Below, one piece after another: positions 22,016 to 60,984 of a DNA stretch of 64,000 nt; within the stretch, counting starts at the first letter, position 1; each line of letters starts with the position of its first letter. A program made the position numbers and the translations under genes. Below the pieces are notes generated by a model that did not search any database, was not told the origin of the DNA, and worked only from the letters and a program-made list of their open reading frames with translations. The stretch is from a virus (Duplodnaviria; Heunggongvirae; Uroviricota; Caudoviricetes). The DNA is taken from positions 30,889-94,888 of the IMG/VR virus record IMGVR_UViG_3300038548_000082; one strand, given 5' to 3'.

Positions 22016-22017
22016 AT

Positions 22018-22093: not shown

Positions 22094-22100
22094 AATTAAT

Positions 22101-22321: not shown

Positions 22322-22396
22322 GGTTTTGTAGCTCAGAGGCAGAGCAGTCGGTTGTCAGCCGTCAGGTCGGGATTTCAAAATTCCTCAAAACCGCCA
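22322..22396 (+). tRNA. tRNA-Asp (anticodon GTC)-like, noncanonical T-arm
   Basis: Acceptor GGTTTTG/CAAAACC; loop TTGTCAG; U-U mismatch in AC stem, weak 53-61 pair; possibly pseudogene. Confidence 0.45.
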
Positions 22397-22398
22397 AT

Positions 22399-22474
22399 GC
22401 TCGAATAGCTCAGTTGGCAGAGCGCCTCCCTTGTAAGGAGGATGTCGTGGGTTCAACTCCTACTTTGAGCGCCA
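22399..22474 (+). tRNA. tRNA-Thr (anticodon TGT)
   Basis: Manual cloverleaf; loop CTTGTAA. Confidence 0.8.
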
Positions 22475-22557
22475 AATTAAACGGGGGTGCTATAGACAAG
22501 GCTGGATAATTACCAGATGATATAGATTCCATCTCCGACCAAACAATTGCGGTATAG

Positions 22558-22633
22558 AGAAGTGGTTATCTCGTTGGGTTCATAACCCAAAGATCGGGGG
22601 TTCAAATCCCTCTACCGCTACCAAACATTAATT
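22558..22633 (+). tRNA. tRNA-Met (CAT), initiator-like
   Basis: GGG/CCC in anticodon stem, A11-U24, 1-72 mismatch (T-T); loop TTCATAA. Confidence 0.75.
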
Positions 22634-22655
22634 AATACAAGGCTGTATATATTAA

Positions 22656-22865
22656 ATGAGCGTGATACATTTAACGACTAAGATACAAGAAACAATTAAA
22701 ACGATCCTTACCCCTTTGGAAAAGACTGAAATGGAAGAGGTGATCGAGTCAGTAAATGATGAAAGTACTATTCGAGGCGAATGGGCTTTTGAAGCTGGTA
22801 AAAAGGCTAGAGATGTAGGAAGAACTAATTCACCACCTGAAGTCTACGATGTTTTAGTAGACTGA
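22656..22865 (+). CDS. hypothetical protein
   Basis: ORF track. Confidence 0.4.
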   Translation: MSVIHLTTKIQETIKTILTPLEKTEMEEVIESVNDESTIRGEWAFEAGKKARDVGRTNSPPEVYDVLVD

Positions 22866-22888
22866 AGTTACTTAACAAGTACAAACAA

Positions 22889-22965
22889 TTCCTCGTGGGG
22901 CGCAAGGTGTGCCGAGTGGCTGTTAACCACTGTCGTAGTAACGTTCGATTCGTTAACGGGGAGCC
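22889..22965 (+). tRNA. tRNA-Asn (anticodon GTT)
   Basis: Acceptor TCCTCGT/ACGGGGA, AC stem AGTGG/CCACT loop CTGTTAA, T-loop TTCGATT; 7-nt variable loop. Confidence 0.65.
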
Positions 22966-23048
22966 AATTTCGACTAGACATACTTAAATCGTGAGTTCAC
23001 GAGCCTTCGGGTGGGTTGGTCAAGTCTCTGTTAATATGGAGACAAAAC

Positions 23049-23423
23049 ATGAAAGTTTGCACTTTGTGCGAAGAGAATAAACCCTTAACCGAGTTTAGGA
23101 AAAGGGCTAATAGAACCGGGTATCATGTACACTGTAAACCCTGCCAAGTCCTTTACGTGAGTAATAGGAGAAGGGAAATAAAGAAGCAGTGTCTTGAGTA
23201 TAAAGGTGGGTGTTGTTCAAAGTGTGGTTACGATAAATCAGACTATGCTTTAGAGTTTCACCACAGAGACCCCGAAAAGAAAGACTTCAGTATAAATAGA
23301 GGAGCTTCTTTAGTTTTTGATAAACTAAAAGAGGAACTTGATAAATGTGACTTACTTTGTGCTAATTGCCACAGAGAGGAACACGAACGATTAACACATA
23401 CACTAGGAGATTCGTCATTATGA
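23049..23423 (+). CDS. HNH endonuclease
   Basis: CTLC...C..C zinc knuckle, EFHHRDP and CANCH motifs. Confidence 0.65.
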   Translation: MKVCTLCEENKPLTEFRKRANRTGYHVHCKPCQVLYVSNRRREIKKQCLEYKGGCCSKCGYDKSDYALEFHHRDPEKKDFSINRGASLVFDKLKEELDKCDLLCANCHREEHERLTHTLGDSSL

Positions 23424-23500
23424 ACTTTACTTATCAACATAGCCAATTTAGTTTCCAATATTACTTTAGTTAGATAAGTAGGTTCCCGAGTGGATGCTTA

Positions 23501-23584
23501 TTTAATATAGGGTCTGCTCGCATGATGGAGAATGCACCGCACTGTAAATGCGCTACGAGAGTTGTCTTGGTTCGATTCCAAGTA
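23501..23584 (+). tRNA. tRNA-Tyr (anticodon GTA), type II
   Basis: Loop CTGTAAA, long variable arm, T-loop TTCGATT. Confidence 0.6.
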
Positions 23585-23591
23585 GGCCCAC

Positions 23592-23677
23592 CAAAATTTA
23601 GGAAGATTGGCAGAGCGGTAATGCAGCTCCCTGCTAAGGAGTACAGTCGAAAGGCTGCGTAGGTTCGATTCCTACAT
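23592..23677 (+). tRNA. tRNA-Ser (anticodon GCT), type II
   Basis: Acceptor GGAAGAT/ATCTTCC, loop CTGCTAA, long variable arm. Confidence 0.8.
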
Positions 23678-23678
23678 C

Positions 23679-23754
23679 TTCCGCCAAGGGTCTGTAGCTC
23701 ATCTGGTAGAGCATCGGTGTGAAGTACCGAGTGTAATAGGTTCAAGTCCTATCA
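23679..23754 (+). tRNA. tRNA-Phe (anticodon GAA)
   Basis: Manual cloverleaf; loop GTGAAGT. Confidence 0.8.
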
Positions 23755-23877
23755 GGCCCACCAAATTATAGTGGTGGTCTAATGCAAACAGGTGAGCAGC
23801 TGGATTGTGATTCCAGTGATATGGAGTTCGAGACTCCAAGGCCACACATCTATTCTATCAACGTCGAGGAGACTGTT

Positions 23878-24264
23878 ATGGATACAAAAACGAAGGCTAA
23901 ACAAAAGAAAGCCCTTCAACTTGGTATGAACCCTGCCACAGCGAGTGGTAGGTTGGTTAAAGATACGCTATTCCGCTTAGCTGTATCTACAGGACACAAG
24001 TGCTTCCAGTGCGGTGAAGAACTAACCAGAGAAACGTTCTCCATAGAGCACATGGAACCGTGGTTAGATAGCGAAGACCCTAAAGGTAACTTCTTTGACC
24101 AAGGTAATATAGCTTTTAGCCACCTTAGTTGTAATCGTGCAGCAGCCCGCCCCAGACCACGTACAGCAACTCGTGCAGAGGCACAAGCTACCTTTCGAGG
24201 TAGATTGGGTAAAACCGAACAGGCTAGACGACGAAAGGAGCAGTACCAACGTACAGGCACCTAG
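23878..24264 (+). CDS. HNH endonuclease (terminase-associated type?)
   Basis: CFQCGEEL...SIEHMEPW...SHLSCN; internal ATG with GAGGAG RBS chosen over 23782. Confidence 0.55.
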   Translation: MDTKTKAKQKKALQLGMNPATASGRLVKDTLFRLAVSTGHKCFQCGEELTRETFSIEHMEPWLDSEDPKGNFFDQGNIAFSHLSCNRAAARPRPRTATRAEAQATFRGRLGKTEQARRRKEQYQRTGT

Positions 24265-24559
24265 ACACCAATTAATAAGGTTTTTATTATGAGTACAGAA
24301 GTGTAACTTACGTCAATAAGACGACAGTAAACATCAAAATTAAGGAGCTACAAAAGCTTCTTAAAACTGCACAGAACCCCATTATAAAAGATAGGCTTCT
24401 GGTAGACTTAAAGTCATATAGGGCAATAAAGCACCTATTAGATCAAAAAGATTAAAAGGAAATATACCAATGTTCAAAATTACTTACATACTATTATCGC
24501 TCTCGTTATCCCTTAAATAGGGAGGATGAGTAGCACCTTATCTTCCTTAACAATACATT

Positions 24560-24645
24560 GGAAGGTAGGGCTTAGTGGTAAGCAACTAGTCTTGAAAACT
24601 AGCCCTGTGTAAAAGCAGATGGTTCGACTCCATTACCTTCCTCCA
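24560..24645 (+). tRNA. tRNA-Ser (anticodon TGA), type II
   Basis: Acceptor GGAAGGT/ACCTTCC, loop CTTGAAA. Confidence 0.75.
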
Positions 24646-24652
24646 AACAATC

Positions 24653-24729
24653 GCTCCGGTGGTCAAATTGGAATAGGCAGCAGACTTAAAATCTGTGGAT
24701 TGCGAGTTCAACTCTCGCTCGGAGCACCA
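24653..24729 (+). tRNA. tRNA-Leu (anticodon TAA) with short variable loop
   Basis: Loop CTTAAAA, A73 discriminator, 5-nt variable loop (atypical for Leu). Confidence 0.65.
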
Positions 24730-24734
24730 AACAT

Positions 24735-24811
24735 GGGCTGGTATAAGAATTGGCATATTTGCCTCGCTTAGAACGAGGAGTTTTCGGGTTCGAGTCCCGA
24801 TCAGCCCACCA
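24735..24811 (+). tRNA. tRNA-Leu (anticodon TAG) with short variable loop
   Basis: Loop CTTAGAA, A73, 5-nt variable loop. Confidence 0.65.
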
Positions 24812-28789: not shown

Positions 28790-30169
28790 ATGAATATTAA
28801 TGTAGATAAAGCTACGGTGGAAAATCAACGCCGTTTACTGTCAGATGCGGTTACTGATGGGTGGGTAACAGACTTTGATCTTGATAGTAGTGAGGTGTTT
28901 ATTGAAAGATGGCAGGGGGATAAACATAGAACATTCCGCCACACTTTCACTATGACAGATACCTCAGTGGAAATTTCTGAAGATAGTACAGAGGTTATAC
29001 GAACTACTGATTTTAAAGATGTTGAGAAATCTCTAGAAGTACCTGTCACAGAAAGTAAACTTATGGCTATACTAGACAAGTTCTTCGGTGGCTCTAAGCG
29101 ACAGGTTAACGTTATCAAGCAGTTTGGTGATGACAGCGAAATGTATTGTATCGAGCCTCTTTATACTGCTCCCGGTGAGACAGATGGTCATGGCGATGTC
29201 ATGGATCTGGAAGGTCTTACTGGAATGGTTGACAGCATTAACAAAGCTAATGACGAAGGCCGTTTGCAGAATGGTTTGTTTCACAAGCACAAGACAAACG
29301 TATGGTCTCTTGAGAAAGCTTGGATCAACCCTACCGAATGTATGATCGGAGACACATTGGTTCCTGAAGGTCAGCCTATTGCTAAGACAGTCTTCAATAA
29401 CGAACGTGCTTTCCAAATGCGTGTTGATGGTGATATCTCTGGACTTAGTATCGGAGCACGAGCGACAGGTACTGTTGATCTGACTAAAGATCTAGCCGAC
29501 ATCCAAGCACGTCCTACAGCTGTTCGTAAGCTACTAGGTGTACACTTCGACTGGGATCACCCAGAACTAACATACACAAGTCCTTCTCAAGGAGGAGCAG
29601 CCAGTTTGAAAAACGAATCATACGAAATTAGCAAGGCCAAGAAAGCTACAATCAAAGACCTTGATAAAGAACAAACATTAATCTTGAAAGAGATTGATGA
29701 AGAATTTGTCTCACTTGAAAAACATTTAGGTGTAGATGATAACCAGACCCCTTCTTCCTCGGCTGAGGCTAAGGTTGGGGAAGATAACCAAGTAACTAAA
29801 GGTACTAATATGACTGACGTAACTCGTGAAGAGTTTGAAGCCCTTCAAAAGGCACTGGCAGTTTCTGAGGCAGTAAACGCATTAAGTGGGTACGGTTTTG
29901 AAACTGATATTAATAAAGCCGTAGCTGGCGCTATCGCTGCTCTGGACGACGAAGGTAAGGAAGCTGTTACAAAAGCTTTCGATGCACTTGTAGCTCGTAC
30001 AGAAGCAGAAGTAGAAAAAGCTAAAGCAGCTACCCCTGAAGAAGAAAGCGAACTGTCAAAAGCTCTCTCTAAAGAAGCTGGTGAAGGTGGTGAAGCAGAG
30101 GAGCCTGTTGAAAAATCTCTTGCAGAACGTGCTCGTGACGCCCAAGATAAAATGAAAGGAGATAAGTAA
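28790..30169 (+). CDS. prohead protease / scaffolding protein (Mu gpI-like)
   Basis: Position; C-terminal acidic coiled-coil scaffold-like segment. Confidence 0.55.
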   Translation: MNINVDKATVENQRRLLSDAVTDGWVTDFDLDSSEVFIERWQGDKHRTFRHTFTMTDTSVEISEDSTEVIRTTDFKDVEKSLEVPVTESKLMAILDKFFGGSKRQVNVIKQFGDDSEMYCIEPLYTAPGETDGHGDVMDLEGLTGMVDSINKANDEGRLQNGLFHKHKTNVWSLEKAWINPTECMIGDTLVPEGQPIAKTVFNNERAFQMRVDGDISGLSIGARATGTVDLTKDLADIQARPTAVRKLLGVHFDWDHPELTYTSPSQGGAASLKNESYEISKAKKATIKDLDKEQTLILKEIDEEFVSLEKHLGVDDNQTPSSSAEAKVGEDNQVTKGTNMTDVTREEFEALQKALAVSEAVNALSGYGFETDINKAVAGAIAALDDEGKEAVTKAFDALVARTEAEVEKAKAATPEEESELSKALSKEAGEGGEAEEPVEKSLAERARDAQDKMKGDK

Positions 30170-45544: not shown

Positions 45545-46006
45545 ATGGCAAATGTAAGATTAAGTACAAGACCAGATGCCCCTACAGGTATTGATCCATC
45601 CTCTATTGTTTGGGTGGAACGAGATACTGGGGGTAGTGTTTTTGTAACAGAAAAAACCACGGTAGGTGCTTTGGTAACCCCTGAGTTTATTTCCAGAGCA
45701 GATGCTTATACTGCTATTGCTGGGGATCATATTCTTCCAGACAACTCAGCTGGTGTGTTGACTATTAATTTACTAGCAACACCTAGTACAGGAGATACTG
45801 TAATTTTCAGGCCAACCAAGGATCAGTTATATTCTGTCTTTGCATTGACCGTAGGGAGAAACGGATCAACTATTATGGGTCTTGCAGAAGATACTGTAGC
45901 TGGTTTTGATGGGGCAACTACAGAAGATAACATAGAATTTGAATTTAAATATAACGGAACAACTTGGGTTATTTCCCAAACAGCCGTTATTGGAACAACA
46001 CTCTAA
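45545..46006 (+). CDS. tail fiber-associated protein
   Basis: ORF track. Confidence 0.4.
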   Translation: MANVRLSTRPDAPTGIDPSSIVWVERDTGGSVFVTEKTTVGALVTPEFISRADAYTAIAGDHILPDNSAGVLTINLLATPSTGDTVIFRPTKDQLYSVFALTVGRNGSTIMGLAEDTVAGFDGATTEDNIEFEFKYNGTTWVISQTAVIGTTL

Positions 46007-46020
46007 GAGGAGGAAAACTT

Positions 46021-47892
46021 ATGAGTAATATTGGAGATTTTTTTGGAGGTGGTGGTGTAGGAAGCCCTGAGTGGCAGTACATTACCAAAGACCTAGGAAC
46101 AGCTGGTGTTTATTCCGCAGTAGATGGCGATGATTTGCAGGTGGATACTGTAGATGCTACGGCTGTTGTAGTTGCGGTAGCACCTCATGATACTTCTTGG
46201 GTAGATGTGGCAGAGTCCACTATAGCGCAACCTAGGATAACAGCTTCAAGTGCTAATATGGGAACTGTCTCAACCACAGACGTATTCACTACGACAGATT
46301 CACAGAGCATTACGATAAGCGATTATCTGGCTACTTCTGCGTCAAATGAAGTTTTTATAGGCTTTGCAGATATTGCAGCCTCTGCGTCACCAGCAGTCGC
46401 ATCAGACATTTTTTACAATATATCCGTCAGGAATAATACAAGCTTTGTATTTGTAGATGGTTCCTCGGTATATAACCACGGCGCTCAAGCTATTACAGCA
46501 GAAGTGCAATTGAGGCTCAATGGCGATGTTGTCTTTTGGATGGACGAAGAAATTGTACATACAGCAACCGGAAGAACTACAAGCCTGAGACCTTCGGTTA
46601 TCATTCTTCCTATAAATGACTGGGTAGAGACTCAGCTATCTGCACGTGCAGAAGATGGCAAAACAGGTTACACAATTGAACTTCCGGTCACAGATATTGC
46701 TGCTGTAAACATGGTATTGATTGATGATTGGTCTAAGGATTTCGACGTATTTCCTATGACTATCAAAGGTCAATCCGGTGACACTGTAACAGGTGAGACT
46801 GAACTAACACTAGATACTGTAACCGAAGCTAGAGATTTTGTTTCAGCTATTGGGTCTACTGATTGGGCTATTGCAGATAAAGCGATAGTAGCAGCTCCAG
46901 AGGCTATAATCCCACCTAAACGTAGTACTGAATTCCCTAATAGGAACTTAGCAAATGCTGTCTATAATACAGGAGCAGCGAATTCGGCAGTAATAGATAG
47001 TACTACTCAGCGTGGGTCTTACTTACCTATATCGGATTCCTCTGATGATATGATCAGTATTAGGTTAAGTGATCCTGAAGCTGTCACTAGTATTCAAACA
47101 TTAGTAAGGAAGAATATAGTAACATACAGTCAAGTCTGGTCTAAAACCACCATAGACGGTATTAATCATCGGAGTAACTTCCACTATGACGTAGCTGGGG
47201 GTAAGATATGGTTAGTGTTAGGCTCAAATAGTGTCGTCACCGCCTTGGTAGAAATAAATATTCTAACAGGGGCTGAAACTTCTCATGCATTTTCATCGAG
47301 TTTTAATACCCAGACTGATAACGACCCTTTTGCTGCGACACCTAACTTATACCGATTAGCAAGTGGTAACTTTATACTTCTATGGGTTAACGTTACCGCA
47401 GTTACTGCTATCCCTGAGATGCAGTATCAAGAATTCACAGCAACAGGTACGTTAGTTGGTGCTATTACTACCGTGCAAGTTAATGGAACAGATGCCTTCT
47501 TTAATGGTACTTACATTACTAAAGATAATAAGACCATGTGTGATTCTATTTATGAATCTACCCATAAGGTTGGGGCATCTAACATTAATATCTACAGAGG
47601 TGGGGGTATAATGAATGTCACCTACTCCGGAGCTACTTCCGAGCAATTAGGATCAACTAACATAGTTAGTAGCCAACAAGACACCTTAATGTTTGCTACT
47701 AAAATCATGGTCTGGGGGGAGGATACAGTGGCTATTGTAGCCGACCAAACCCCTGTAGACCCTCGTGTTTTCCAACCTGTATATGGGGTTAGGTTCTTCG
47801 ACAGGACAGACTTTGATAGATGGTTAAATGAACTGGCAGATGTTTATGATATGCCACTTGGCGTAGACCTACTAAACGGATTGGTGCAATAA
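46021..47892 (+). CDS. tail fiber protein
   Basis: ATG with AAGAGGAGG RBS; G/T/S-rich repetitive 620+ aa. Confidence 0.55.
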   Translation: MSNIGDFFGGGGVGSPEWQYITKDLGTAGVYSAVDGDDLQVDTVDATAVVVAVAPHDTSWVDVAESTIAQPRITASSANMGTVSTTDVFTTTDSQSITISDYLATSASNEVFIGFADIAASASPAVASDIFYNISVRNNTSFVFVDGSSVYNHGAQAITAEVQLRLNGDVVFWMDEEIVHTATGRTTSLRPSVIILPINDWVETQLSARAEDGKTGYTIELPVTDIAAVNMVLIDDWSKDFDVFPMTIKGQSGDTVTGETELTLDTVTEARDFVSAIGSTDWAIADKAIVAAPEAIIPPKRSTEFPNRNLANAVYNTGAANSAVIDSTTQRGSYLPISDSSDDMISIRLSDPEAVTSIQTLVRKNIVTYSQVWSKTTIDGINHRSNFHYDVAGGKIWLVLGSNSVVTALVEINILTGAETSHAFSSSFNTQTDNDPFAATPNLYRLASGNFILLWVNVTAVTAIPEMQYQEFTATGTLVGAITTVQVNGTDAFFNGTYITKDNKTMCDSIYESTHKVGASNINIYRGGGIMNVTYSGATSEQLGSTNIVSSQQDTLMFATKIMVWGEDTVAIVADQTPVDPRVFQPVYGVRFFDRTDFDRWLNELADVYDMPLGVDLLNGLVQ

Positions 47893-50909: not shown

Positions 50910-52085
50910 ATGTTAGAAGTACAAAAGTTTTTAAACAGAGAGACAGCGAACTACGGGGTAGGGGATGAGCAGCGAAAGGGGGAGCATGCACTTGCCATGC
51001 TAAAAGAAGCATACGGGATAAAAGCTAACATCTGGAAAGGGCAACTAGTTTGCTTAAACTATTGCCAGATAGAAAGCCCTAAGACTCACCCTATCACGAT
51101 AGAGTCCCGTTCTTTAGTACTAGAATTTGGATCTTGGGAGGTTATTTCAAGGTCGTTCTCAAGGTTCTTTAATCTAGGAGAGATCGGTGAGGTGAATGAA
51201 GAGTGGGTTCCTTGTCCTACTAAAGGTGTGAGTCGATTCCGTACTATGACCTTCCACGAGAAGATGGATGGTTCTTTGATTGGTATCTTCACTTACAAGA
51301 ACCAATTACTTTACCGTACTCGTTCTCTGATTATGCCAGAAGGGGATATCAATGGGACTGGAACTACTTGGAAGGAAGCTATTGAGTCTTGTTTACCTAT
51401 CTCTTGGCGACCTCCTTACAGTAGTGCTCTTGACGTTACATTGATCTGTGAGCTTACTTGTAGGGAGAATCGTGTGGTTGTTAAGTATGATGCCAAACCT
51501 GACTTGACGTTACTGGCTATAAGAGGTCGTGATGGTAAGTATCACGATGCTGAAACAGCTACGTTTATAGCAGACCGTTATGGTTTCTCACTTCCACATA
51601 CCTATAACTTTAGCACAACAGCTGACTGTTTAAGGGCTTGTAAAGAGCTACCAAACCTTGAAGAGGGTTACGTAGGTTATAACCCTGCTGGGATACCTTG
51701 TGTAAAGATTAAGAACCCAGCTTATGTAGCTGCTCATCACTTACGAGGTGAAGGCTTAAATGAGAAACGTATTCTTGATATAATCATTATGCATGAAGAG
51801 GTAGAGTACTTGACACTCTTCCCAGAAGATGAGAACATGTTCGAACCGTATACAGATGCTTATGCTGAAATGGTACAGTCTTTCTATACGTTAGAGAAGC
51901 TGATTAATGAATGGCACTTTGTTCAGATGGATCAGAAGACCTTTGCTATGTTCTTCAAGGACATGCATTACTCTGCTATGGCTTTCCAGATCAGGAAAGG
52001 TAAGACTTGGAAGCAAACGTTTGAAGGGTTGACACAACAGAAGAAACGTGATTTAATACTGAACTACAAAGGAGGATTAGAATGA
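50910..52085 (+). CDS. rnlA: RNA ligase 1 (T4 RnlA-type)
   Basis: Motif [10 protein letters not shown] (T4: KEDGSLVS), EGYVGY (motif IV) and [12 protein letters not shown] (T4: KIKSDWYVSLH). Confidence 0.8.
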
Positions 52086-52249
52086 AAAACAAACGAGGGT
52101 TTACCCTAATTGAACTTATGATTGTTGTTGCTGTTATGGGGATTCTGGCATCAGTGACAGTTCCAGCTTATGAAGATTATCAAGCACGTCAAAACGGCAC
52201 AATGATTTCTTCTGAGAAAAGTGTTGACAACGGTATGATGCTTCAGTAA
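52082..52249 (+). CDS. 55-aa type IV pilin-like (prepilin) peptide
   Basis: MKNKRG|[31 protein letters not shown]: class III signal with G-1, F+1, E+5; AGGAGG 6 nt upstream; ATGA overlap with rnlA stop. Confidence 0.55.
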
Positions 52250-52304: not shown

Positions 52305-53183
52305 ATGAAAAACATTACACTTCCAAAACTGATCGGCGGTGTTGCCGCTTTACTTCTTACCCTTATCGTGAGCTTGAATAGCTTTACAATCTGTGGTGTA
52401 GGTGAGGAATGCACAGCAACAGCCTTTGGTAAGGTTGTACAAGAAGATATCACGGGTTTTGAAATCATGCCTTTCTGGTATACCGTTCATACCATGAACA
52501 TAAAGGATCAATCTTGGTCTTTTAATGACATGGGAGTACCAGCTAAAGATAAGTTCAAAACGTCAATGGACGTAAGCTTTAATGGTAAGTTTATGTCTGG
52601 GTTCGGTGGGGAGATTACGACTAATGTCGGTACTACGAGTCAGTTCCTCCGAACGCACGTAAACAAGCCTATGCGTTCTTGTGTTATTAAGGCGGGTACT
52701 GCTACTGACAACTCCAAGGAGTTCTTTGATGAAGCAACTCAACGGTTAATGGCACAGACAGCTAAAGAGTGTGTCAACACATACCTTGAGAACATTAAGG
52801 ACACTGGTGGAGCCTTTAAGGTTACAGAAGTACGGTTCTCTGATATCCGATTAGACTCTCGTGTTGAGGCGATGATCGTCAAGACTAAAGAACGAGAAGA
52901 AGCTGAAGAACGTCAAGCATCTCAACTACGTATCAAAGACCTTGAAGCTCAAGAGGTTCAGAAAGTTGCAGCAGCTAACAAGCTAGCAGCAAAGGATAAC
53001 AAAGATGCTGCGATCTCTAAAGCAGAGGGGGTTAAGGAATCTATGATTCTGGAGGCGGAAGGTAACGTCAAGTTAGCTAAGTCAATTACTCCTGCCCTTG
53101 TAGAGTATATCAAGGCTAAGAACTGGGATGGTAAACGGTCTACCCACGTCCTTGGATCAAACACTTCAATGTTCTTGAAGTAA
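52305..53183 (+). CDS. SPFH/band-7 (HflK/C-, stomatin-like) membrane protein
   Basis: N-terminal TM, SPFH core, C-terminal EREEAEERQ...coiled coil. Confidence 0.7.
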   Translation: MKNITLPKLIGGVAALLLTLIVSLNSFTICGVGEECTATAFGKVVQEDITGFEIMPFWYTVHTMNIKDQSWSFNDMGVPAKDKFKTSMDVSFNGKFMSGFGGEITTNVGTTSQFLRTHVNKPMRSCVIKAGTATDNSKEFFDEATQRLMAQTAKECVNTYLENIKDTGGAFKVTEVRFSDIRLDSRVEAMIVKTKEREEAEERQASQLRIKDLEAQEVQKVAAANKLAAKDNKDAAISKAEGVKESMILEAEGNVKLAKSITPALVEYIKAKNWDGKRSTHVLGSNTSMFLK

Positions 53184-53606: not shown

Positions 53607-54515
53607 ATGAGCTGGGAAACCCCTTACACAGTAGTCTATGAAGATGATGCAATCCGCTTACTCTGCTTCCGAGAAGTTGATGGCAATCCTATAGTAATCG
53701 TACCTCCACAGGCAGGACATTCAAGTTGGATTGCTGATTACGGTAAAGGTCAAAGCCTTGTCGCAGCTGCAATGGAAACCAGCAATGCTCCTGTGTATTG
53801 TATCGATTTCAAAAGTTGCACATTTGCCAGAAAGCGTGAAGGTATTATGGACCTGCTAAGTCAAGTTGAGATTGCCATAAGCCATGCTGGTGATTGTCCA
53901 GTACACCTTATTGGTCTATGTCAAGGTGGTTGGTTGTCTACGATATTCACTGCCCTCTATCCAGAGCAAGTTGCAAGTCTTACAGTTGCTGGTGCTCCTA
54001 TCGATGCTCATGCTGGCGATTGTATCCTTGCAGATGCTATTAAGAAACCTATGTGGCAATATGAGCTGGTAGTCAAAATGGGTTTAGGTTTAGTTCATGG
54101 GGAGTTTATGCTTGCCAATTGGAAAGCTCCCAATGCTCGAAAGCACTACATAGATCGTTATTTGTTCCCAAGTGAGCGTAATGAGAAATTCTACTCTTGG
54201 TACGATAAAACTTGTGATATAGCAGGCGGCTGGTATCTTTGGTGTATTCAGAACCTTTTTAAAAACAATGATCTTATTCATAATCGTATGGAGATTGATG
54301 GACAAGAAGTGAAGCTATCAAACATCGATTGCCCTGTGTATCTAATTGCAGGAGAGCGTGATGATATCTCTCCAAAAGAGCAAACATTTAATCTGGCTGA
54401 TGCTGTAAGTGGTTATTCACTTAATATCTTGATTCCAAATGCAGGTCATATTGGAGTCTTCATGGGGCCTAAGTCTATGCCAGTTTGGAAGGAACACATC
54501 TTTTCTAAAATGTAG
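53607..54515 (+). CDS. alpha/beta hydrolase with Cys nucleophile (PhaC/PhaZ-like lipase box GLCQGG)
   Basis: G-x-C-x-G-G box, Asp and His candidates downstream. Confidence 0.5.
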   Translation: MSWETPYTVVYEDDAIRLLCFREVDGNPIVIVPPQAGHSSWIADYGKGQSLVAAAMETSNAPVYCIDFKSCTFARKREGIMDLLSQVEIAISHAGDCPVHLIGLCQGGWLSTIFTALYPEQVASLTVAGAPIDAHAGDCILADAIKKPMWQYELVVKMGLGLVHGEFMLANWKAPNARKHYIDRYLFPSERNEKFYSWYDKTCDIAGGWYLWCIQNLFKNNDLIHNRMEIDGQEVKLSNIDCPVYLIAGERDDISPKEQTFNLADAVSGYSLNILIPNAGHIGVFMGPKSMPVWKEHIFSKM

Positions 54516-54576: not shown

Positions 54577-56229
54577 ATGAAGAACACAGCAGAACAGAAC
54601 ACTTGCGTAGACATTTATTCAGATAAGAAACCTTTCAAGGTTGAAGCTGTAGCAGGTTCTGGTAAAACTACCACTGTTCGTATTATGGCTGAGTCAGATA
54701 TGGAACGTTCAGCTTTGTACTTAGCTTTCAACAAGGCTGCTGCTGATGAAGCTGCTGAGAAGATGCCTTCTAACACAGAGTGTCGTACAACTCACTCTAT
54801 CGCTTACCGTTCAATCATAGGCAGTCCTAACTCGGTACTGGGAAGTAAGCTCTCACGTCCTGCATGGAACCCTAAGAAGTATGTTAATGCTGGTGGTACT
54901 GTGAAAGAGATTAAGAACTTGGCTAAAGTTAAAGATGTACCGGGAGCTAATAAACTAGCTATCGCTCGTGTGGCTAAGCAGTCTGTAGCTTGTTTTGAAG
55001 CTTCTGCATCTAATGCTATCACTGAAGACCACATTCCTTATGTTGAGCTTCAGAAGCTACGTGATAAGGCGGCTAAACTAGATACAGCGTTCTCTGAAAA
55101 GCAGTTTATCAAAGGTGTGCTGTGTTGTGCTGAGACACTTTGGCAAGCTCGTATCGATGAAACTTCACCTGTAGTGATGAGTCATGATACTTATCTAAAG
55201 CTTTACCAACTGAGCAAGCCAGTACTCAACTACGATGTGATCTTCTTAGATGAAGCACAAGATACCTCTGATTGCGTTATCGATATTGTTATGCAGCAGA
55301 TGGATCGAGGTACACAGGTTGTATGTGTTGGTGATACCTACCAGTCCATATACGGCTGGAGAGGCGCTGTAAACGCTTTAGCTAAGATAGACACCAAGAG
55401 TACCCCTTTATCTCAATCGTGGCGCTATGGCCCTGAGGTTGCGTCTGTGGCTACTTATATCCTCGATAGTAAGATGATTGTTAAGGGTTCACCACATTTA
55501 GACACAAAAGTAGGTACTGTTGATACCACCAAGCCTTATACACAGTTATTCCGTACTAACATTAAGTTGATCCAGCAAGGTATTAAGCTTATCCGTCAAG
55601 GTGTAAAGGTCCGTATGGATGTAGATGTTAAGGGCTTTGTAAAGATGCTAACTTCTTTGATCGCTCTTAAGTATGGTGACAACAAGAACGTTAAGCATGA
55701 GGACGTAGTTATACACTCTACTTGGGATGATCTTCTGGATGAGGCTGAGGTAGTTAAGGGCGAGTTAAAGCTCCTGTCAAGCCTTGTAGAGCGTGGTAAT
55801 GCACAGGAAGTACTTGACATCCTTGGCGGTTATACTAAGGCTAGAAACCCTCATGTAATCCTCTCTACTGCACATAAGTCTAAGGGTATGGAATACCCTC
55901 AAGTAATCCTTGGTGATGACTTCATGGATGTATTTGATGATGAAGGTAACTTCATTGAGCCTAGTGATATGGAACGTAACCTTATGTACGTTGCTGCTAC
56001 TCGTGCTATAGAGTGTTTGCAGTTGAATAAGACTGTCTCTGATATCATTGCTCATCGTAAGCGTGGTTCTGACCTATCATTTGAAGAAGATCATGATCGT
56101 TCAGATATGGATAACTTTGAATTAGAGGGATTACTTGAAATGGAAGCGTCTAGCATTGAAGAAAAGTTTGACAAGGTAGTGGGAAATCAAGTAAGATCAC
56201 TTCAAACAGACTTACCTTGGAGGGCGTAA
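54577..56229 (+). CDS. UvrD/PcrA-family DNA helicase
   Basis: Walker A AGSGKTTT, DEAQD box, motif III GDTYQSIYGWRGA. Confidence 0.8.
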   Translation: MKNTAEQNTCVDIYSDKKPFKVEAVAGSGKTTTVRIMAESDMERSALYLAFNKAAADEAAEKMPSNTECRTTHSIAYRSIIGSPNSVLGSKLSRPAWNPKKYVNAGGTVKEIKNLAKVKDVPGANKLAIARVAKQSVACFEASASNAITEDHIPYVELQKLRDKAAKLDTAFSEKQFIKGVLCCAETLWQARIDETSPVVMSHDTYLKLYQLSKPVLNYDVIFLDEAQDTSDCVIDIVMQQMDRGTQVVCVGDTYQSIYGWRGAVNALAKIDTKSTPLSQSWRYGPEVASVATYILDSKMIVKGSPHLDTKVGTVDTTKPYTQLFRTNIKLIQQGIKLIRQGVKVRMDVDVKGFVKMLTSLIALKYGDNKNVKHEDVVIHSTWDDLLDEAEVVKGELKLLSSLVERGNAQEVLDILGGYTKARNPHVILSTAHKSKGMEYPQVILGDDFMDVFDDEGNFIEPSDMERNLMYVAATRAIECLQLNKTVSDIIAHRKRGSDLSFEEDHDRSDMDNFELEGLLEMEASSIEEKFDKVVGNQVRSLQTDLPWRA

Positions 56230-56750
56230 TGACAACGATAGTTATAGACAGACTTAATAAAAGGTTGTACACTGACTCTAGAGTAACGATTACCCCGAAG
56301 GCTACTAAAATCTTTGGAAAGGTAATCTACAGGAAGGGTGAGGAGAGCATCAGGGATGACTGGTGTAAGGTGATGTACAGTACACGTAATAGGATTATAA
56401 CAGGAAGTGGTAACGTTGCTCTGATACAGAAGTACCGAGACTACCTATTAGGTAAGCGTAAGTTCTGTCCTAAGTTAGTTGACACAACGGTATACGATAT
56501 TACTTTCGCTCCTACCTTCAAAGTCATCTGTAATGATGACGGGAAGATCCACGAGTGTACTGGGGACTTCCACGTAACTGGAAGTGGGGCTGACTATGCA
56601 TGTGGTGCTATTGTGGCAAGACCTTTCGCTGAAAGTAAAGATAAAGTGACTACTGCAATAAAAGCAGCTATAAAACTTGACAAGTATTCTGGGGGCGACA
56701 TTGTTGAATACGATCTCTCAGGACGCTGGTACGATGAAGATAAATGTTAA
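56229..56750 (+). CDS. HslV-like Ntn-hydrolase peptidase (proteasome beta family)
   Basis: MTTIV N-terminus (Thr2 nucleophile after Met removal), GSGNVAL and TGSGADYACGAIVA aligning to HslV GFAGGTADAF / IGSGGPYAQAAARA. Confidence 0.6.
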   Translation: MTTIVIDRLNKRLYTDSRVTITPKATKIFGKVIYRKGEESIRDDWCKVMYSTRNRIITGSGNVALIQKYRDYLLGKRKFCPKLVDTTVYDITFAPTFKVICNDDGKIHECTGDFHVTGSGADYACGAIVARPFAESKDKVTTAIKAAIKLDKYSGGDIVEYDLSGRWYDEDKC

Positions 56751-56764: not shown

Positions 56765-57898
56765 ATGTTACCAACACTATACGGTAAAGCAAGTAATGGA
56801 AAGATTAGGCAGTGGGTTGTCTACGTGGAAGACGATGAAGTTGTTGTCTTATCTGGGCAAGTTAATGGCAAGCAAAAGGAAGATCGCTCTACCAGTGCTC
56901 CCAAGAATATCGGTAAGTCCAATGAGACTACCGCCCACCAACAAGCATGGTTGGAAGCAGAGTCAAAGTGGAAGAAGAAACTTAAGCAAGACTATCGGGA
57001 ATCTGTAGAAGATATCCCTCAGTCAACACTACCTAATCTTGCTCATAAGTATCAAGAGAAGGCTCACACTATCAACTGGAATCAAACTTGGGAACTACCT
57101 AAGCTAGATGGAGTTCGTGGTAGTAGCTTCTATAAGAACAATGGTCAGATTCTTCAGTCACGAGGTGGTGAAGAGTATCCAGTTATTCAGGAGATAGCTG
57201 ATGAACTTGAAGAGTGCTTCTTTGCGGATTATCCAGATTCATTTGTTGATGGTGAGCTTTACTGTCATGGTATGTACTTGGAGGATATTACAGCCTGTGT
57301 TAAGAAGCACAATGAGGATACTAAGAAGATTGAATTTCATGTATTCGATTGGTTGCATAACCAAGATGACAATCATGGATGGTATGAGCGTTATAACAGG
57401 TACTCAAATAAACTAAGTTTGTACTACATGGGCTTAGGGGGAGACTACAACGGACGTATTAAAGGTGTTTACGCAGCCCCCTGTCCATCAGAGCAATTGA
57501 TGTTAGACACTCACGCGATGTATGTTAAACAGGGTTACGAAGGTATCATCCTACGTGACCAGTTCGAGAAGTACAGCTTCGGTAACCGTACAACAGGTAT
57601 CATCAAGTACAAGGTGCCAGAGTCTGAGGAGTTTGTAGTAGACTCCTTCGAGATCTCTAAGCGAGGTGAGGGTACACCTTGGTGTATGTATGTAGGTCTT
57701 GATGGTAAGCCGGGATTATTTAAAGCCCCAGTTGCTACGACTATTGAACGCCGTAAGTTCTATGCTCAGAACCCAGAGAAGTTCATTGGTAAGCATTTAA
57801 CAGTTGACTTTGAGAAGCTTTCGAAGTATGGTAAACCAACTAAGCCAATTGGCAAAGCATTTAGGGAGGTAGATTTAGATGGCAACCCGAAAACATAA
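56765..57898 (+). CDS. ATP-dependent DNA ligase
   Basis: KxDG motif LPKLDGVRG; 377 aa (T7-ligase size). Confidence 0.8.
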   Translation: MLPTLYGKASNGKIRQWVVYVEDDEVVVLSGQVNGKQKEDRSTSAPKNIGKSNETTAHQQAWLEAESKWKKKLKQDYRESVEDIPQSTLPNLAHKYQEKAHTINWNQTWELPKLDGVRGSSFYKNNGQILQSRGGEEYPVIQEIADELEECFFADYPDSFVDGELYCHGMYLEDITACVKKHNEDTKKIEFHVFDWLHNQDDNHGWYERYNRYSNKLSLYYMGLGGDYNGRIKGVYAAPCPSEQLMLDTHAMYVKQGYEGIILRDQFEKYSFGNRTTGIIKYKVPESEEFVVDSFEISKRGEGTPWCMYVGLDGKPGLFKAPVATTIERRKFYAQNPEKFIGKHLTVDFEKLSKYGKPTKPIGKAFREVDLDGNPKT

Positions 57899-58088
57899 AA
57901 GTAATATGAAATACGAGATAGGGGATGAAGTAAACTTCTATCAGAATAAAGAGGTCCGTACAGGCACTGTCAGTTTTATTGGTAGTAGTTTTATTTCTGT
58001 TTACCCAAACACGGCAGAAGTTTCAGATGCAGCTGGTGAGCCTATACGAGAGATTGAATATGTTGTTGAGAAAGGAGATATTATATGA
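57879..58088 (+). CDS. hypothetical protein
   Basis: ORF track. Confidence 0.35.
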   Translation: MATRKHKSNMKYEIGDEVNFYQNKEVRTGTVSFIGSSFISVYPNTAEVSDAAGEPIREIEYVVEKGDII

Positions 58089-58942
58089 GTAGTTTTACAG
58101 TGAGGTTATGTGGAACCAGACAATCTTATTGCACAATGGAGTACACTCTTTTTAATGGTGGTGAAGTAAACCTACGGTTACCTGAGAATTTCCTAGGTAA
58201 TCCAGAGGTGGGGTCAGTTATTGTTGACGCTTGGCTGCAAAGTTCAGATGATATTATAGCTTTGTGTATGCTCACTGATGCGTTGAAACGAGAATATCCA
58301 GTTGCCAAGTACCAACTTCTAATAAACTATATCCCCTATGCTAGGCAGGATAGAGTGTGTAATGAAGGCGAGGCTTTATCTATTAAGGTTTTTGCTAATA
58401 TTATTAATACTCTAAGCTTCGATTCTGTGGCGTTAATAGACCCACATAGTGAAGTCGCAGGTGCTGTACTGGATAATGTAACTCGTGTAGTCACACAAGA
58501 TGAGATTATACAAACGTCCCCTGTGTTAGCTACTAAGCTAAGCGAAAAAGGCGTCATTCTGATTTCCCCTGATGCTGGAGCTACGAAGAAGACTGAAACC
58601 GTTTCTAAAGCTTTTGGTGGTGTACCAGTAGTTCAGGGTTATAAGCAACGGGATCTAGCCACAGGAGCATTATCAGGCTTCGGTGTTAGCGATCCTGAAG
58701 GACTACTACATCAAGCTGATTGTCTAATTGTAGATGATATCTGTGATGGTGGTGGAACTTTCCTAGGGTTAGCTGCTGAACTACGTAAGGCTGGTGCTCA
58801 AACTGTTTCACTCTATGTCACTCACGGTATCTTTTCACAAGGAATTGAGAAACTACTGGACAATGGTATTGACCGTGTGTACACTACGGATTCATTCTTA
58901 AGTGGGGAACAGCATGAGCGACTTGAAGTTATCAAACTGTGA
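58085..58942 (+). CDS. prs: ribose-phosphate pyrophosphokinase (PRPP synthetase)
   Basis: PRPP-binding loop LIVDDICDGGGT. Confidence 0.8.
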   Translation: MSSFTVRLCGTRQSYCTMEYTLFNGGEVNLRLPENFLGNPEVGSVIVDAWLQSSDDIIALCMLTDALKREYPVAKYQLLINYIPYARQDRVCNEGEALSIKVFANIINTLSFDSVALIDPHSEVAGAVLDNVTRVVTQDEIIQTSPVLATKLSEKGVILISPDAGATKKTETVSKAFGGVPVVQGYKQRDLATGALSGFGVSDPEGLLHQADCLIVDDICDGGGTFLGLAAELRKAGAQTVSLYVTHGIFSQGIEKLLDNGIDRVYTTDSFLSGEQHERLEVIKL

Positions 58943-59235
58943 GATCAAAGACTACATCTTGCTGAAGCACGTAAGCAGAGATAGTGGTAAACTTAGAACT
59001 TATTTCATCAAGAGGAGCACTTTGGATGGGAACAGCTACGAGTTTGAAGATGGTTTCAACGAGCGGTATGCTATGCTGCTATCAGACATTGTTACGGAAG
59101 GTCATCTTGTATTCAAATGCAGGTACGACATTAACACCCTACTACTGTTAGGATTAAACATTTATTAAATAATGGTGGACACTTACTCAGTAAATCAGTA
59201 TAGTGTCCTCACTAACTAATACAAAGGAGAAACAC

Positions 59236-60984
59236 ATGAGTAATTTCCCAGCCACTTTGAGTTCAGACGTCTATAAGGTATTCCACCCAGCAGCAGGTCA
59301 CCCTGATATTGTGGCAACCTACGAGAACTTTACAAACCGTAGTGGACGTTTGAGTAACGTCAAAGATAATAAGGCTGTAGTCAATGTAGGTTGGCAGGCT
59401 GTTATTAAGAAGCACTTGATTGACCGTTGGAATAACACCTTCTTCAAGGTAGAGAAGTCTAAGGCTATTGCCCGTTACAAGGTGGTAACTACATCTATCC
59501 TAGGTTACGAAGTCTCTACCACTCACTTGGAGAAGCTACATGATCTTGGCTACTTGCCACTACGTGTTAAGACTTACCCCGAAGGTACTTTAGTTCCTTA
59601 TAGTGTCGCTAGTGCTACATTTGAAACAACTGTATTTGGTTTTGAATGGTTGCCCGGTATGCTTGAGACTGTTATCTCTCAAGAGGTTTGGCCCATTCAG
59701 ACTGCGGCTACCACCTCTCTTGCGTATCAGCGTAAGCAGAAACAGTTATTTGAAGAAACTGGTGGTCCTATGGAGCTGTTACCTTTCATGATTCACGACT
59801 TCTCAGCGCGTGGTGGCTTTGGTGAAGAAGCTTCTGCAATGTCAGGTTTTGGTCACCTAGCAGCAGGTTCAGCAGGTTCGGATACTATCGCAGCAGGTAT
59901 GTTTGCTGAGGAGTACTACTGTGCTGACTGGGAGAATGAATTGATTATGGCTTCCGTCAACGCCACTGAACATAGCGTTACCTGTGGATGGTTAGAAGAA
60001 GGTGAAGCAGTATACTTCAAGCACTTGATGGAGAACGTTGCACCTGAGGGCATCCTGTCCGTTGTATCGGATACTTGGGACTTCTGGCACACTGTTACTG
60101 TAATTGCAGACGAGCTTAAAGAAGTTATCATGAACCGTAATGGTAAGCTTGTGTTCCGTCCTGATAGTGGTGACCCTGTTGATATCTTGTGTGGTACAGG
60201 AGCTGAGTTTAATTTTGAAACCTTGGAAGACGCTCTAGATGAATTTGAGGACTACCACTCTAACCAAGCAACCGAAGATTGTGAGGGTGCTTATAATATT
60301 GGCAACGAGAGCTACACTGATCTAGTTCAGGCTGACGGTAAATACTACGAGATCACTACCAAGTTTGAATATAACCGCCACGACAAGATGTACTACTTCA
60401 TTGACAATTATACCTCTGGATATGGAGAACCTGTTGCAGTGGAAGTAGAAGCTACACCAGAAATGAAAGGTCTTGTAGAAGTCCTATGGGATACCTTCGG
60501 TGGTACAGTTACTGACAAAGGTTTCAAGATGCTTGACGAACACGTTGGTGCTATCTACGGTGATGCAATCACATTAGAACGTCAGGACCAGATTGGTGAC
60601 CGTTTGAAGGCTAAAGGCTTCGTACCTCAGGTAGTACTTGGTGTAGGCTCTTTTAGTTTCCAGTACGTTACTCGTGATACTCACGGCTCAGCTATGAAGG
60701 CTACTAATGTGACTAAGGTAGATCATGTAGCTGCTTCTGAGACGTTTGGGGAGACCCCAACTTATGACCAACCAATCTTCAAAGATCCTAAAACGGATTC
60801 TAAGAAGAAGTCTGCTAAAGGTCTACTACGAGTAGAACGTGAAGATGGTCAGCTTGTTCAATACGACATGCAAACTCGTGAGCAAGAGAAAGAAGGCTTA
60901 CTACAAGTTGTCTTTGAAGATGGTGTGCTGTACAATGAGCAAACCTTAAAAGGCATCCGAGAGCTTGTTGCAAGTCAGCTGTAA
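59236..60984 (+). CDS. nadV: nicotinamide phosphoribosyltransferase
   Basis: N-terminal NFPATLSSDVYKVFHP and overall ~580 aa NAMPT-like; AAGGAG RBS. Confidence 0.8.
   Translation: MSNFPATLSSDVYKVFHPAAGHPDIVATYENFTNRSGRLSNVKDNKAVVNVGWQAVIKKHLIDRWNNTFFKVEKSKAIARYKVVTTSILGYEVSTTHLEKLHDLGYLPLRVKTYPEGTLVPYSVASATFETTVFGFEWLPGMLETVISQEVWPIQTAATTSLAYQRKQKQLFEETGGPMELLPFMIHDFSARGGFGEEASAMSGFGHLAAGSAGSDTIAAGMFAEEYYCADWENELIMASVNATEHSVTCGWLEEGEAVYFKHLMENVAPEGILSVVSDTWDFWHTVTVIADELKEVIMNRNGKLVFRPDSGDPVDILCGTGAEFNFETLEDALDEFEDYHSNQATEDCEGAYNIGNESYTDLVQADGKYYEITTKFEYNRHDKMYYFIDNYTSGYGEPVAVEVEATPEMKGLVEVLWDTFGGTVTDKGFKMLDEHVGAIYGDAITLERQDQIGDRLKAKGFVPQVVLGVGSFSFQYVTRDTHGSAMKATNVTKVDHVAASETFGETPTYDQPIFKDPKTDSKKKSAKGLLRVEREDGQLVQYDMQTREQEKEGLLQVVFEDGVLYNEQTLKGIRELVASQL

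Follow-up and report, generated by a model that had tools for sequence, protein, structure and literature searches.

The product of one gene in the window, the whole 64-kb stretch of DNA that was analysed, is probably a standalone peptidase with an N-terminal threonine, a member of the proteasome-beta/HslV superfamily and of the compact phage PPH type (phrog_1040). Its predicted fold, its catalytic residues, its family placement, its gene context and the absence of an AAA+ neighbour all stand behind this. The core of the original prediction, an Ntn-hydrolase of this superfamily with a predicted N-terminal Thr, is borne out by profile comparisons, the predicted fold and residue conservation. 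Its description as 'HslV-like' holds at the level of the superfamily and fails for HslV itself, as the protein matches neither the HslV models nor PF00227, lacks the second helix (H2), and scores at least equally well against 20S beta subunits. The window also carries tailed-phage genes for terminase, portal, major head, sheath, tape measure and baseplate, and the features relevant to the peptidase are summarised in Table 1.

Table 1. Features of the peptidase gene and its surroundings, in positions of the window
Feature	Position	Strand	Remarks
Candidate prohead protease (XkdF/S78-type)	28790-30169		Between portal and major head genes; Peptidase_S78_2, 23.6 bits
UvrD/Rep-type SF1 helicase gene	54577-56229	+	PF00580, E 4.5e-19; stop overlaps peptidase ATG; context
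Shine-Dalgarno GGAGG	56219-56223	+	5 nt 5' of peptidase ATG, within 3' end of helicase gene; read from sequence
Peptidase CDS (proteasome-like N-terminal-threonine, PPH-type; phrog_1040)	56229-56750	+	173 aa, stop included
Thr2 codon	56232-56234	+	Thr1 after initiator Met removal, predicted nucleophile; aligned to Thr1 of beta5i and HslV
Asp16 codon	56274-56276	+	Proteasome Asp17 equivalent; D in 114/114 homologues; aligned to Asp17
Residues 20-45, about 14 of them an extra beta-hairpin insertion	56286-56363	+	Between Asp17 and Lys33 equivalents; S3/S4 site beside active-site cleft
Lys47 codon	56367-56369	+	Proteasome Lys33 equivalent; K in 111/114 homologues; aligned to Lys33
GSG motif codons (Gly118-Ser119-Gly120)	56580-56588	+	Ser119 = proteasome Ser129; aligned to GSG of beta5i and HslV
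D151-K-Y-S154-G-G codons	56679-56696	+	Proteasome Asp166 and Ser169 (D-x-Y-S-G-G motif); aligned to beta5i 'DSYSGG'
C-terminal tail DLSGRWYDEDKC	56712-56747	+	Conserved in closest subgroup; predicted disordered
ATP-dependent DNA ligase gene	56765-57898	+	PF01068, E 3.9e-12; downstream of peptidase; context

Gene, family and active site

The open reading frame was read from the sequence as originally placed, with an ATG at 56229-56231, a stop at 56748-56750 and an MTTIV N-terminus, and its 173-aa product opens with MTTIVIDRLNKRLYTDSR. The TAA stop of the upstream UvrD-like helicase (550 aa) and the peptidase ATG overlap by one base in the sequence TAATG. The GGAGG motif and an N-terminus that is exactly MTT in 101 of 113 homologues favour ATG 56229 as the start and make the alternative TTG at 56217 improbable. 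A promoter-like site just upstream of the gene (TTGACA-18-TAAGAT, 56168-56197) was discounted, since such sites are no commoner around the gene than in shuffled sequence (21 observed vs 19.4 ± 4.2 in the promoter scan).

Relatives of the peptidase can be detected with profiles, the single sequence being insufficient: single-sequence searches against Pfam and, with phmmer, the PDB gave no match. The protein matches phrog_1040 (E 7.9e-16), which 30/30 aligned homologues match as well, and the family profile matches beta5i (9e-10) and HslV (1.3e-7) among PDB sequences. Direct comparison of the family with E. coli HslV by hhalign gave Prob 94% and E 1.2e-7, and set ITGSGNVALIQ opposite AGFAGGTADAF and VTGSGADYACGAIVA opposite IGSGGPYAQAAARA, so that both pairings of Gly-rich segments proposed earlier were recovered. 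The Pfam Proteasome family (PF00227) was not matched by the peptidase at E up to 10, and is matched by 2/30 relatives at E 1e-4 or weaker. Neither NCBIfam HslV equivalog (NF003964, TIGR03692; cut-offs 137 and 157.75 bits) was matched at E up to 1, and against the archaeal beta equivalog the peptidase reaches 17.6 bits vs a cut-off of 224.

Residue conservation was counted over 114 homologues, and the start motif over 113; a repetitive protein of 2553 aa (P0039) was left out as a low-complexity false positive of the representative search. The collected homologues are 116-264 aa long (median 170) and come from phages of Vibrio, Caulobacter, Pseudomonas, Rhizobium, Erwinia and Salmonella, with one contig labelled Sinomicrobium; 41 BFVD viral clusters contain homologues. 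Phage proteins of this kind are already catalogued and widely annotated, for example as phrog_1040, as a 'putative proteasome beta subunit' in KPP10 and as 'HslV without HslU' in pSal-SNUABM-04, and the present gene adds no new category. The phage itself has no sequenced close relative among 50,697 phage records, as a megablast of the 4.5-kb peptidase surroundings against them found no match, and a pattern search of IMG/VR for related loci returned 34 pattern matches with no confirmed relative. PADLOC gave no match for the peptidase, which thus resembles no modelled component of a known defence system.

Every predicted catalytic residue is present. In the alignments, all members of the proteasome catalytic pentad (PMC11947121) and the oxyanion-hole Gly are matched, by T2, D16, K47, S119, D151 and G61. 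Position 2 is T in 112/114 homologues and S in the other two, and G61 is conserved in 112/114. Within the GSG motif, Gly118 is invariant (114/114), Ser119 is kept in 107/114 with T in four more, and Gly120 is kept in 113/114; further on, Asp151 is D in 109/114, and residue 154 is S or T in 112/114. The D-x-Y-S-G-G motif resembles that of 20S beta subunits and not that of HslV. The equivalents of Thr1, Asp17 and Lys33, together with GSG, align with HslV by hhalign, and the MTTIV N-terminus is identical to that of HslV (ClpQ), the peptidase component of the ATP-dependent bacterial protease HslUV.

Initiator Met is expected to be removed by host methionine aminopeptidase where the second residue is small, and E. 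coli HslV is processed likewise to expose its Thr1. By analogy, Met1 of the peptidase would be cut off by the host enzyme with no need for a propeptide, leaving Thr as residue 1 and presumptive nucleophile at an exposed N-terminus of the mature protein. Lys47 and Asp16, with Ser119 and Asp151, would then complete the pentad.

Fold, insertion and C-terminal tail

Structure prediction, a check suggested with the original prediction, gave a proteasome-type Ntn fold. The AF2 monomer model (pLDDT 88.7, pTM 0.83) has the alpha-beta-beta-alpha arrangement of this class, and Foldseek placed it against 20S beta, HslV and BPH in the PDB, all near E 1e-7. The model retains helices H1, H3 and H4, through which subunits of proteasome-like assemblies touch one another within and between rings. 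Only one helix (63-73) occupies the place where HslV and beta subunits carry H1 and H2. The hhalign comparison has a 19-column gap facing HslV residues 73-91, i.e. H2, and a 147-aa relative (P0028; pLDDT 93.4) likewise shows the single-helix topology. At the C-terminus, a disordered tail comes after a strand (158-162), and neither H5 nor any other helix occurs beyond residue 150.

Absence of H2 is a trait common to two groups only, PPH and RPC (PMC8665760). The PPH group, represented by WP_042125023.1 and described by Fuchs et al., 2021, was reported to have no known function and no co-occurrence with AAA+ proteins (PMC8665760). Like the peptidase, its members are phage-borne, start with MTT, lack a propeptide, have a compact group-I proteasome-like fold without H2 or the C-terminal S12/H5, and combine intact catalytic residues with the absence of an AAA+ partner. 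They differ in length, at about 140 aa vs 173 aa. Two elements that are extra in the peptidase account for this excess, the S3/S4 insertion with about 14 aa and the C-terminal tail with about 11 aa. We place it with PPH through phrog_1040 and these shared features, and RPC, AAH or CPH could also be its formal cluster.

Other proteasome-like proteins are less similar. The 20S beta subunits (beta5/beta5i; archaeal PsmB) have a propeptide, H2, H5 and an alpha-subunit gene, all of which are missing here, and the peptidase is about 30 residues shorter. BPH and Anbu, standalone bacterial proteasome homologues, are cellular, not viral, and both keep H1 and H2, the latter being absent from the peptidase. 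BPH assembles as a heptameric double ring, and HslV as a dodecamer of two hexameric rings. A long C-terminal helix H5 makes coiled-coil contacts in Anbu, and a long acidic pore loop follows H1 and H2 in BPH (PMC8665760), whereas the peptidase model has no H5 and no acidic pore loop, its 74-86 linker (LGKRKFCPKLVDT) being basic. A standalone mode of action like that of Anbu or BPH, one of the options raised earlier, is conceivable.

The D16-K47 spacing is 31 positions, whereas HslV and beta subunits space Asp17 and Lys33 by 16. The model fills the added length with extra strands at 25-28, 31-34 and 40-42 (pLDDT about 70), which are absent from the 147-aa relative. The tail is a 10-12-residue acidic/aromatic segment, SGRWYDEDKC in the peptidase. 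Nine close homologues carry the pattern SG[RK]W[YFW]D[ED]DKC, 8 more have degenerate aromatic/acidic forms of it, and members of 140-165 aa have none. Among the homologues, the insertion and the tail are confined to the close subgroup of the peptidase. Tail pLDDT averages 72 over residues 161-170 and 37 over 171-173, with residues 169-173 below 50, and since confidence is low to moderate, the modelled placement of insertion and tail relative to the active site is uncertain.

Genomic context and competing readings

The flanking genes are those originally named, a UvrD-type helicase and an ATP-dependent DNA ligase. The region also holds genes for PRPP synthetase and NAMPT, forming a replication and nucleotide-metabolism block, and family searches assigned all neighbours of the peptidase in the window. 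The overlap of stop and start codons suggested the helicase as a conserved functional partner. The helicase-peptidase-ligase order is kept in a 61%-identical relative and lost in a 38%-identical one, and the helicase was rejected in this role because the latter has a different upstream gene and more distant homologues lie among unrelated small genes.

That no hslU is adjacent was likewise confirmed. Every ORF of at least 60 aa in the window was scanned for Walker-A motifs. The motif turned up in terminase and helicase ORFs and in ORFs assigned to portal, tape measure, baseplate wedge or ligase. The two remaining matches were an antisense ORF and an ORF of 642 aa (45964-47892) that family searches left unassigned; no AAA+ unfoldase could be recognised among the Walker-A ORFs of the 64-kb window. 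Nor was hslU or another AAA+ gene found around nine homologues, whose surroundings were inspected to a distance of about 5-10 kb. As the scan covers the window, and the contig is at least 95 kb long, another part of the phage genome could carry an AAA+ gene, and an unfoldase supplied by the host is also conceivable.

It had been proposed that the phage protein could hijack host unfoldases of the HslU or ClpX type to degrade host or defence proteins. HslV-like rings of the protein would then dock onto host HslU, or another AAA+ unfoldase such as ClpX, and redirect ATP-dependent degradation. In HslUV structures, HslU engages an apical surface built from H1 and H2, of which H2 supplies one half. 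The proposal is therefore weakened by the missing apical H2, a deletion seen in the model, in hhalign and in P0028. Around Lys28 of HslV the alignment gives no residue-by-residue match, as an insertion occupies this region, and both the failure to match the HslV equivalog models and the lack of AAA+ co-occurrence in PPH (Fuchs et al., 2021) speak against such docking. The hosts are also very different (Caulobacter, Pseudomonas, Vibrio and Rhizobium, with the Sinomicrobium-labelled contig), which makes a single conserved docking surface less likely. We found no support for this proposal, and regard it as distinctly improbable. An unlikely alternative, which we rate above host docking, is a sequence-specific processing enzyme or transpeptidase resembling connectase, a monomeric archaeal proteasome-like protein ligase. 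In monomeric or small oligomeric form it would act on one defined target, with the insertion as a specificity lid and the tail recruiting a replisome or host partner. The conserved catalytic residues are equally compatible with a ligase/transpeptidase of this kind. However, connectase lacks H1 and H2 and has a two-helix insertion, whereas the peptidase keeps H1 along with H3 and H4, the ring-contact helices, and its insertion, a beta hairpin, shows little conservation and is lacking in most family members. The structural score of connectase against the peptidase is below that of ring-forming proteases, and at 38% identity the relative no longer has the helicase and ligase as neighbours.

Phages require a protease for prohead maturation, and with its intact protease active site the peptidase might be thought to process capsid or scaffold during head assembly. 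This is hardly credible given the location of the gene amid replication and nucleotide-metabolism genes, some 25 kb away from the portal-major head block. A candidate XkdF/S78-type prohead protease is already encoded within that block, and homologues in other phages sit amid small early-type genes. It is also very improbable that the protein is a non-protease Ntn amidohydrolase acting on a small-molecule amide, or a silent scaffold like proteasome alpha or inactive beta subunits.

Proposed function and significance

The most likely function is that of an ATP-independent threonine peptidase produced together with replication genes. The gene would be co-transcribed, and is apparently translationally coupled, with the genes for the UvrD-like helicase, DNA ligase, PRPP synthetase and NAMPT, and this co-expression with replication and nucleotide-metabolism genes suggests that the protein acts inside the infected cell and not in the virion. 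The loss of the apical H2 and the absence of an AAA+ gene beside any relative examined make it most likely that it works without a dedicated unfoldase, as a small homo-oligomer whose substrates would be peptides, unstructured proteins or one particular target. Proteasome subunits in isolation lack activity before assembly (PMC8665760), so activity of the peptidase would depend on assembly as well. The hairpin beside the substrate cleft and the acidic/aromatic tail of the subgroup probably tune substrate access and partner docking.

The hairpin, which lies next to the catalytic Thr at the S3/S4 site also used in connectase, and the subgroup-specific C-terminal tail also lead us to a more speculative reading, which we consider unlikely on present evidence. 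The subgroup would be a targeted ATP-independent threonine protease or transpeptidase, whose tail docks one partner, such as a host defence protein or a protein of the replisome or of repair, and which cleaves or remodels one defined substrate early in infection. If true, this would be the first function assigned to any viral proteasome homologue.

A catalogue of viral proteasome homologues dates from 2021. They routinely carry the label 'peptidase HslV family', and no member with a characterised function was found. In the literature we found no activity, oligomer or substrate data for any phage member. The peptidase offers a defined test case, with a confident model, an intact pentad and a fixed position of its gene in a replication/NAD-salvage block, and the insertion beside the active site and the conserved C-terminal peptide are natural handles for finding its substrate and partner. 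The function of one such protein would fill an acknowledged gap, and could uncover phage proteolysis of host or defence proteins.

The peptidase gene and its predicted active site

The 173-aa proteasome-like peptidase is encoded exactly where the original prediction placed it, in an open reading frame that runs from an ATG at 56229–56231 to a stop codon at 56748–56750 and begins MTTIVIDRLNKRLYTDSR. The ATG overlaps the TAA stop of the preceding 550-aa gene by its A (TAATG), and a GGAGG Shine-Dalgarno sequence lies 5 nt 5' of the start. As 101 of 113 homologues begin exactly with MTT, the ATG at 56229 is the start and a propeptide is absent; a TTG at 56217, an earlier start in a mechanical ORF list, was ruled out on the same count. 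Promoter-like sites around the gene are no commoner than in shuffled sequence.

On its own, the protein had no match in single-sequence searches of Pfam and the PDB, and only three close homologues among 5.8 billion clustered proteins. Against PHROG it matched phrog_1040 ('peptidase HslV family', E 7.9e-16), which takes in the window protein and all 30 aligned relatives. A profile search from it gave 32 homologues; scanning 1.84 billion representatives exhaustively with HMMER gave 92 at E <= 1e-3, nearly all standalone proteins of 140–190 aa. A 30-homologue profile matched proteasome beta5i (E 9e-10), beta5 and HslV (1.3e-7) among PDB sequences, with alignments spanning Thr1 to the D-x-Y-S-G-G motif. 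Alignment of the family with E. coli HslV by hhalign (Prob 94%, E 1.2e-7) recovered the glycine-rich matches noted originally, pairing ITGSGNV... with AGFAGGTAD... and VTGSGADYACGA with IGSGGPYAQAA. An AlphaFold2 model from a 30-sequence alignment (pLDDT 88.7, pTM 0.83) found 20S beta subunits, HslV and BPH in the PDB by Foldseek at E ~1e-7; the predicted fold is the proteasome-type Ntn fold, as had been proposed, and not a non-Ntn one.

E. coli HslV also begins MTTIV, its Thr being exposed by methionine aminopeptidase. With a small second residue and this precedent, the window protein would likewise have its Met removed by the host enzyme, leaving Thr1 exposed. Proteasome catalysis requires a 'pentad' of Thr/Lys/Asp and Ser/Asp (PMC11947121), and all of these residues are present. 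In a 114-sequence family alignment, T2 (proteasome Thr1) is found in 112 sequences (S in the remaining 2), D16 (Asp17) in 114, K47 (Lys33) in 111, the oxyanion-region glycine G61 in 112, G118-S119-G120 (the Ser129 motif) in 114, 107 (T in 4 more) and 113, respectively, D151 (Asp166) in 109, and S or T154 (Ser169) in 112. Because pairwise identity within the family is just ~25–35%, this near-invariance argues for a working enzyme.

Relation to HslV and to published phage homologues

The description 'HslV-like' holds at the superfamily level, but it is over-specific and not new. Neither the NCBIfam HslV equivalogs nor PF00227 matched the window protein, and the score on the curated archaeal beta-subunit model was 17.6 bits (cut-off 224). 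In the window model, a single helix (63–73) between strand S5 and the following sheet strand takes the place of helices H1 and H2 of HslV and beta subunits; hhalign leaves a 19-column gap facing HslV residues 73–91, and the model of P0028, a 147-aa relative (pLDDT 93.4), has the same one-helix topology. The absence of an adjacent HslU was borne out more widely. A Walker-A scan of all window ORFs of >=60 aa picked out the terminase, helicase, portal, tape measure, baseplate wedge and ligase, plus two others, an antisense ORF and an unassigned one of 642 aa that matches no family; together with family matches, this revealed no recognisable AAA+ gene in the 64-kb window. In nine other contexts, too, the homologue had no AAA+ gene beside it. 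These comprised the same phage from a second sample, two relatives (one 61% identical and keeping the order helicase-peptidase-ligase-PRPP synthetase-NAMPT, the other 38% identical and with another gene upstream), further metagenomic contigs, Vibrio phages vB_CoeS_P1 and F100, and Caulobacter phage CcrBL9. With three defining features failing (models, H2 and AAA+ partner), the protein is not HslV proper.

Phage proteins of this type have been described before. A survey of proteasome homologues defined 22 new groups, which lack propeptides; H2 is absent only from PPH and RPC, and S12/H5 elements are absent from group I (Fuchs, Alva and Lupas, 2021; PMC8665760). The survey identified neither a genomic context nor an AAA+ interactor co-occurring with these homologues, and describes their function as unknown (PMC8665760). 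The window protein shows all of these architectural traits, and its assignment to PPH over the neighbouring RPC, AAH and CPH is based on its architecture and PHROG family rather than on the cluster map of the survey. A Salmonella jumbo phage encoding HslV without HslU was noted in a 2020 genome report (PMC7823757). BFVD holds 41 viral clusters at E <= 1e-3, several labelled 'proteasome subunit beta', 'Ntn hydrolase' or 'HslV', and P0028 alone matches 95 phage records. Among these are Erwinia and Salmonella jumbo phages, phages of Vibrio and Rhizobium, and the Pseudomonas KPP10/PAK_P3 group, in which the KPP10 homologue carries the annotation 'putative proteasome beta subunit'. The proteasome-type fold is common among sequenced phages; no experimental study of a phage member came up in the literature searched.

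Relative to the 140-aa core, the window protein has two additions, an S3/S4 insertion and a C-terminal tail. The D16–K47 spacing is 31 positions, compared with 16 between Asp17 and Lys33 in HslV and beta subunits, and the model places additional beta strands at 25–28, 31–34 and 40–42 (pLDDT ~70); among relatives, the insertion differs in both its sequence and its length. The C-terminus reads DLSGRWYDEDKC. Nine close homologues, with identities as low as ~33%, share its motif, SG[RK]W[YFW]D[ED]DKC; 8 more have degenerate aromatic/acidic versions, and shorter members lack it. The tail is predicted to be mostly disordered (residues 169–173, pLDDT <50), as is typical of a docking peptide, and C-termini in this family point outward from the presumed rings, offering possible interaction sites (PMC8665760).

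Genomic setting

The window phage is tailed and contractile, with terminase, portal, major head, sheath, tape measure and baseplate genes in the window. Its terminase is just 45–52% identical to those of Aeromonas, Klebsiella and rV5/Mydo-like myoviruses, and no close DNA relative was found among 50,697 phage records. The helicase and DNA ligase originally named as neighbours do flank the peptidase. Before this block lie the alpha/beta hydrolase, SPFH protein and RNA ligase genes, and after the ligase come a PRPP-synthetase-like gene, a nicotinamide/nicotinate phosphoribosyltransferase and a dCMP deaminase. The first two form an NAD-salvage pair; in phages, NAD-reconstituting genes of this kind have been linked to resistance against defences that deplete NAD. 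The RNA ligase, tRNA set and CCA enzyme together suggest a tRNA-repair capacity. The apparently split phrog_388 gene looks like an interruption by a mobile endonuclease, or by an intron or intein; an intron, intein or homing element may likewise interrupt the ribonucleotide reductase gene. The 459-aa product is probably the prohead protease, which may be fused to a scaffold.

Features of the window and of L001, a contig of the same phage from another sample
Feature	Position	Strand	Details
CCA-adding tRNA nucleotidyltransferase	1258–2484	+	phrog_2244, E 4.5e-126
Nucleotidyltransferase, apparently split	2900–3421; 4050–4727	+	phrog_388, profile 32–179; 178–335
Homing-endonuclease ORF	3418–4053	+	phrog_314; between phrog_388 halves, overlapping both
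DprA-like recombination mediator	17894–18499	-	phrog_768, E 1e-45
16 tRNA genes	20763–24811	+	Arg, Lys, Pro, Glu, Ile, Asp, Thr, Met, Asn, Tyr, Ser x2, Phe, His, Leu x2; just 5' of terminase gene
459-aa ORF	28790–30169	+	Portal–major head interval; Peptidase_S78_2 (XkdF-type) 23.6 bits, cut-off 24; phrog_1530 'DNA methyltransferase'
RNA ligase	50910–52085	+	T4 Rnl1-like, PF09511
55-aa ORF	52082–52249	+	N-terminal type IV pilin/pseudopilin methylation motif (PF07963 N_methyl match on identical gene in L001); unusual in a phage; directly precedes SPFH/Band-7 gene
SPFH/Band-7 protein	52305–53183		
Alpha/beta hydrolase	53607–54515	+	Similar to DUF3141 and PHB depolymerase C-terminus; odd for a phage
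UvrD/Rep-type SF1 helicase			Upstream of peptidase; PF00580, E 4.5e-19
Sigma-70-like site	56168–56197	+	TTGACA, 18 nt, TAAGAT; 3' end of helicase gene, ~30 nt before peptidase ATG
Peptidase	56229–56750	+	
ATP-dependent DNA ligase			Downstream of peptidase; PF01068, E 3.9e-12
PRPP-synthetase-like	58085–58942	+	Just past ligase; adjacent NAD-salvage pair with next gene, same order in 61%-identical relative
NAMPT/NAPRTase family	59203–60984	+	
Ribonucleotide reductase large subunit	L001 18211–19056; 19748–20522		Past window end (~window 64439 onward); fragments of 281 and >305 aa, both PF02867, ~700-bp gap; single 735-aa gene in relative's contig

Proposed role and alternatives

Judged from sequence and model, the window protein is most likely an intracellular, ATP-independent N-terminal-threonine peptidase, co-produced with replication and nucleotide-metabolism genes. 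It would act catalytically as a peptidase, and a homo-oligomer is expected because it keeps the helices for contacts within and between rings (H1, H3 and H4). Such an enzyme may need no dedicated unfoldase, and its insertion and tail may modulate substrate access and partner binding.

In HslUV structures, HslU contacts an apical surface to which H2 contributes. Deletion of H2 therefore weakens the idea that the peptidase hijacks host HslU, as does the spread of the family over phages of unrelated hosts. A part in capsid maturation is very unlikely: some 25 kb separate the gene from the head genes, and between portal and major head there is already a candidate XkdF/S78-type prohead protease. 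A connectase-like enzyme with a specific target is a live alternative and the most interesting reading; connectase carries its specificity-determining lid at the same S3/S4 site, beside the substrate cleft (PMC8665760).

The window peptidase is a somewhat embellished new member of a class of phage proteasome homologues already known, and its presence would not surprise a specialist.
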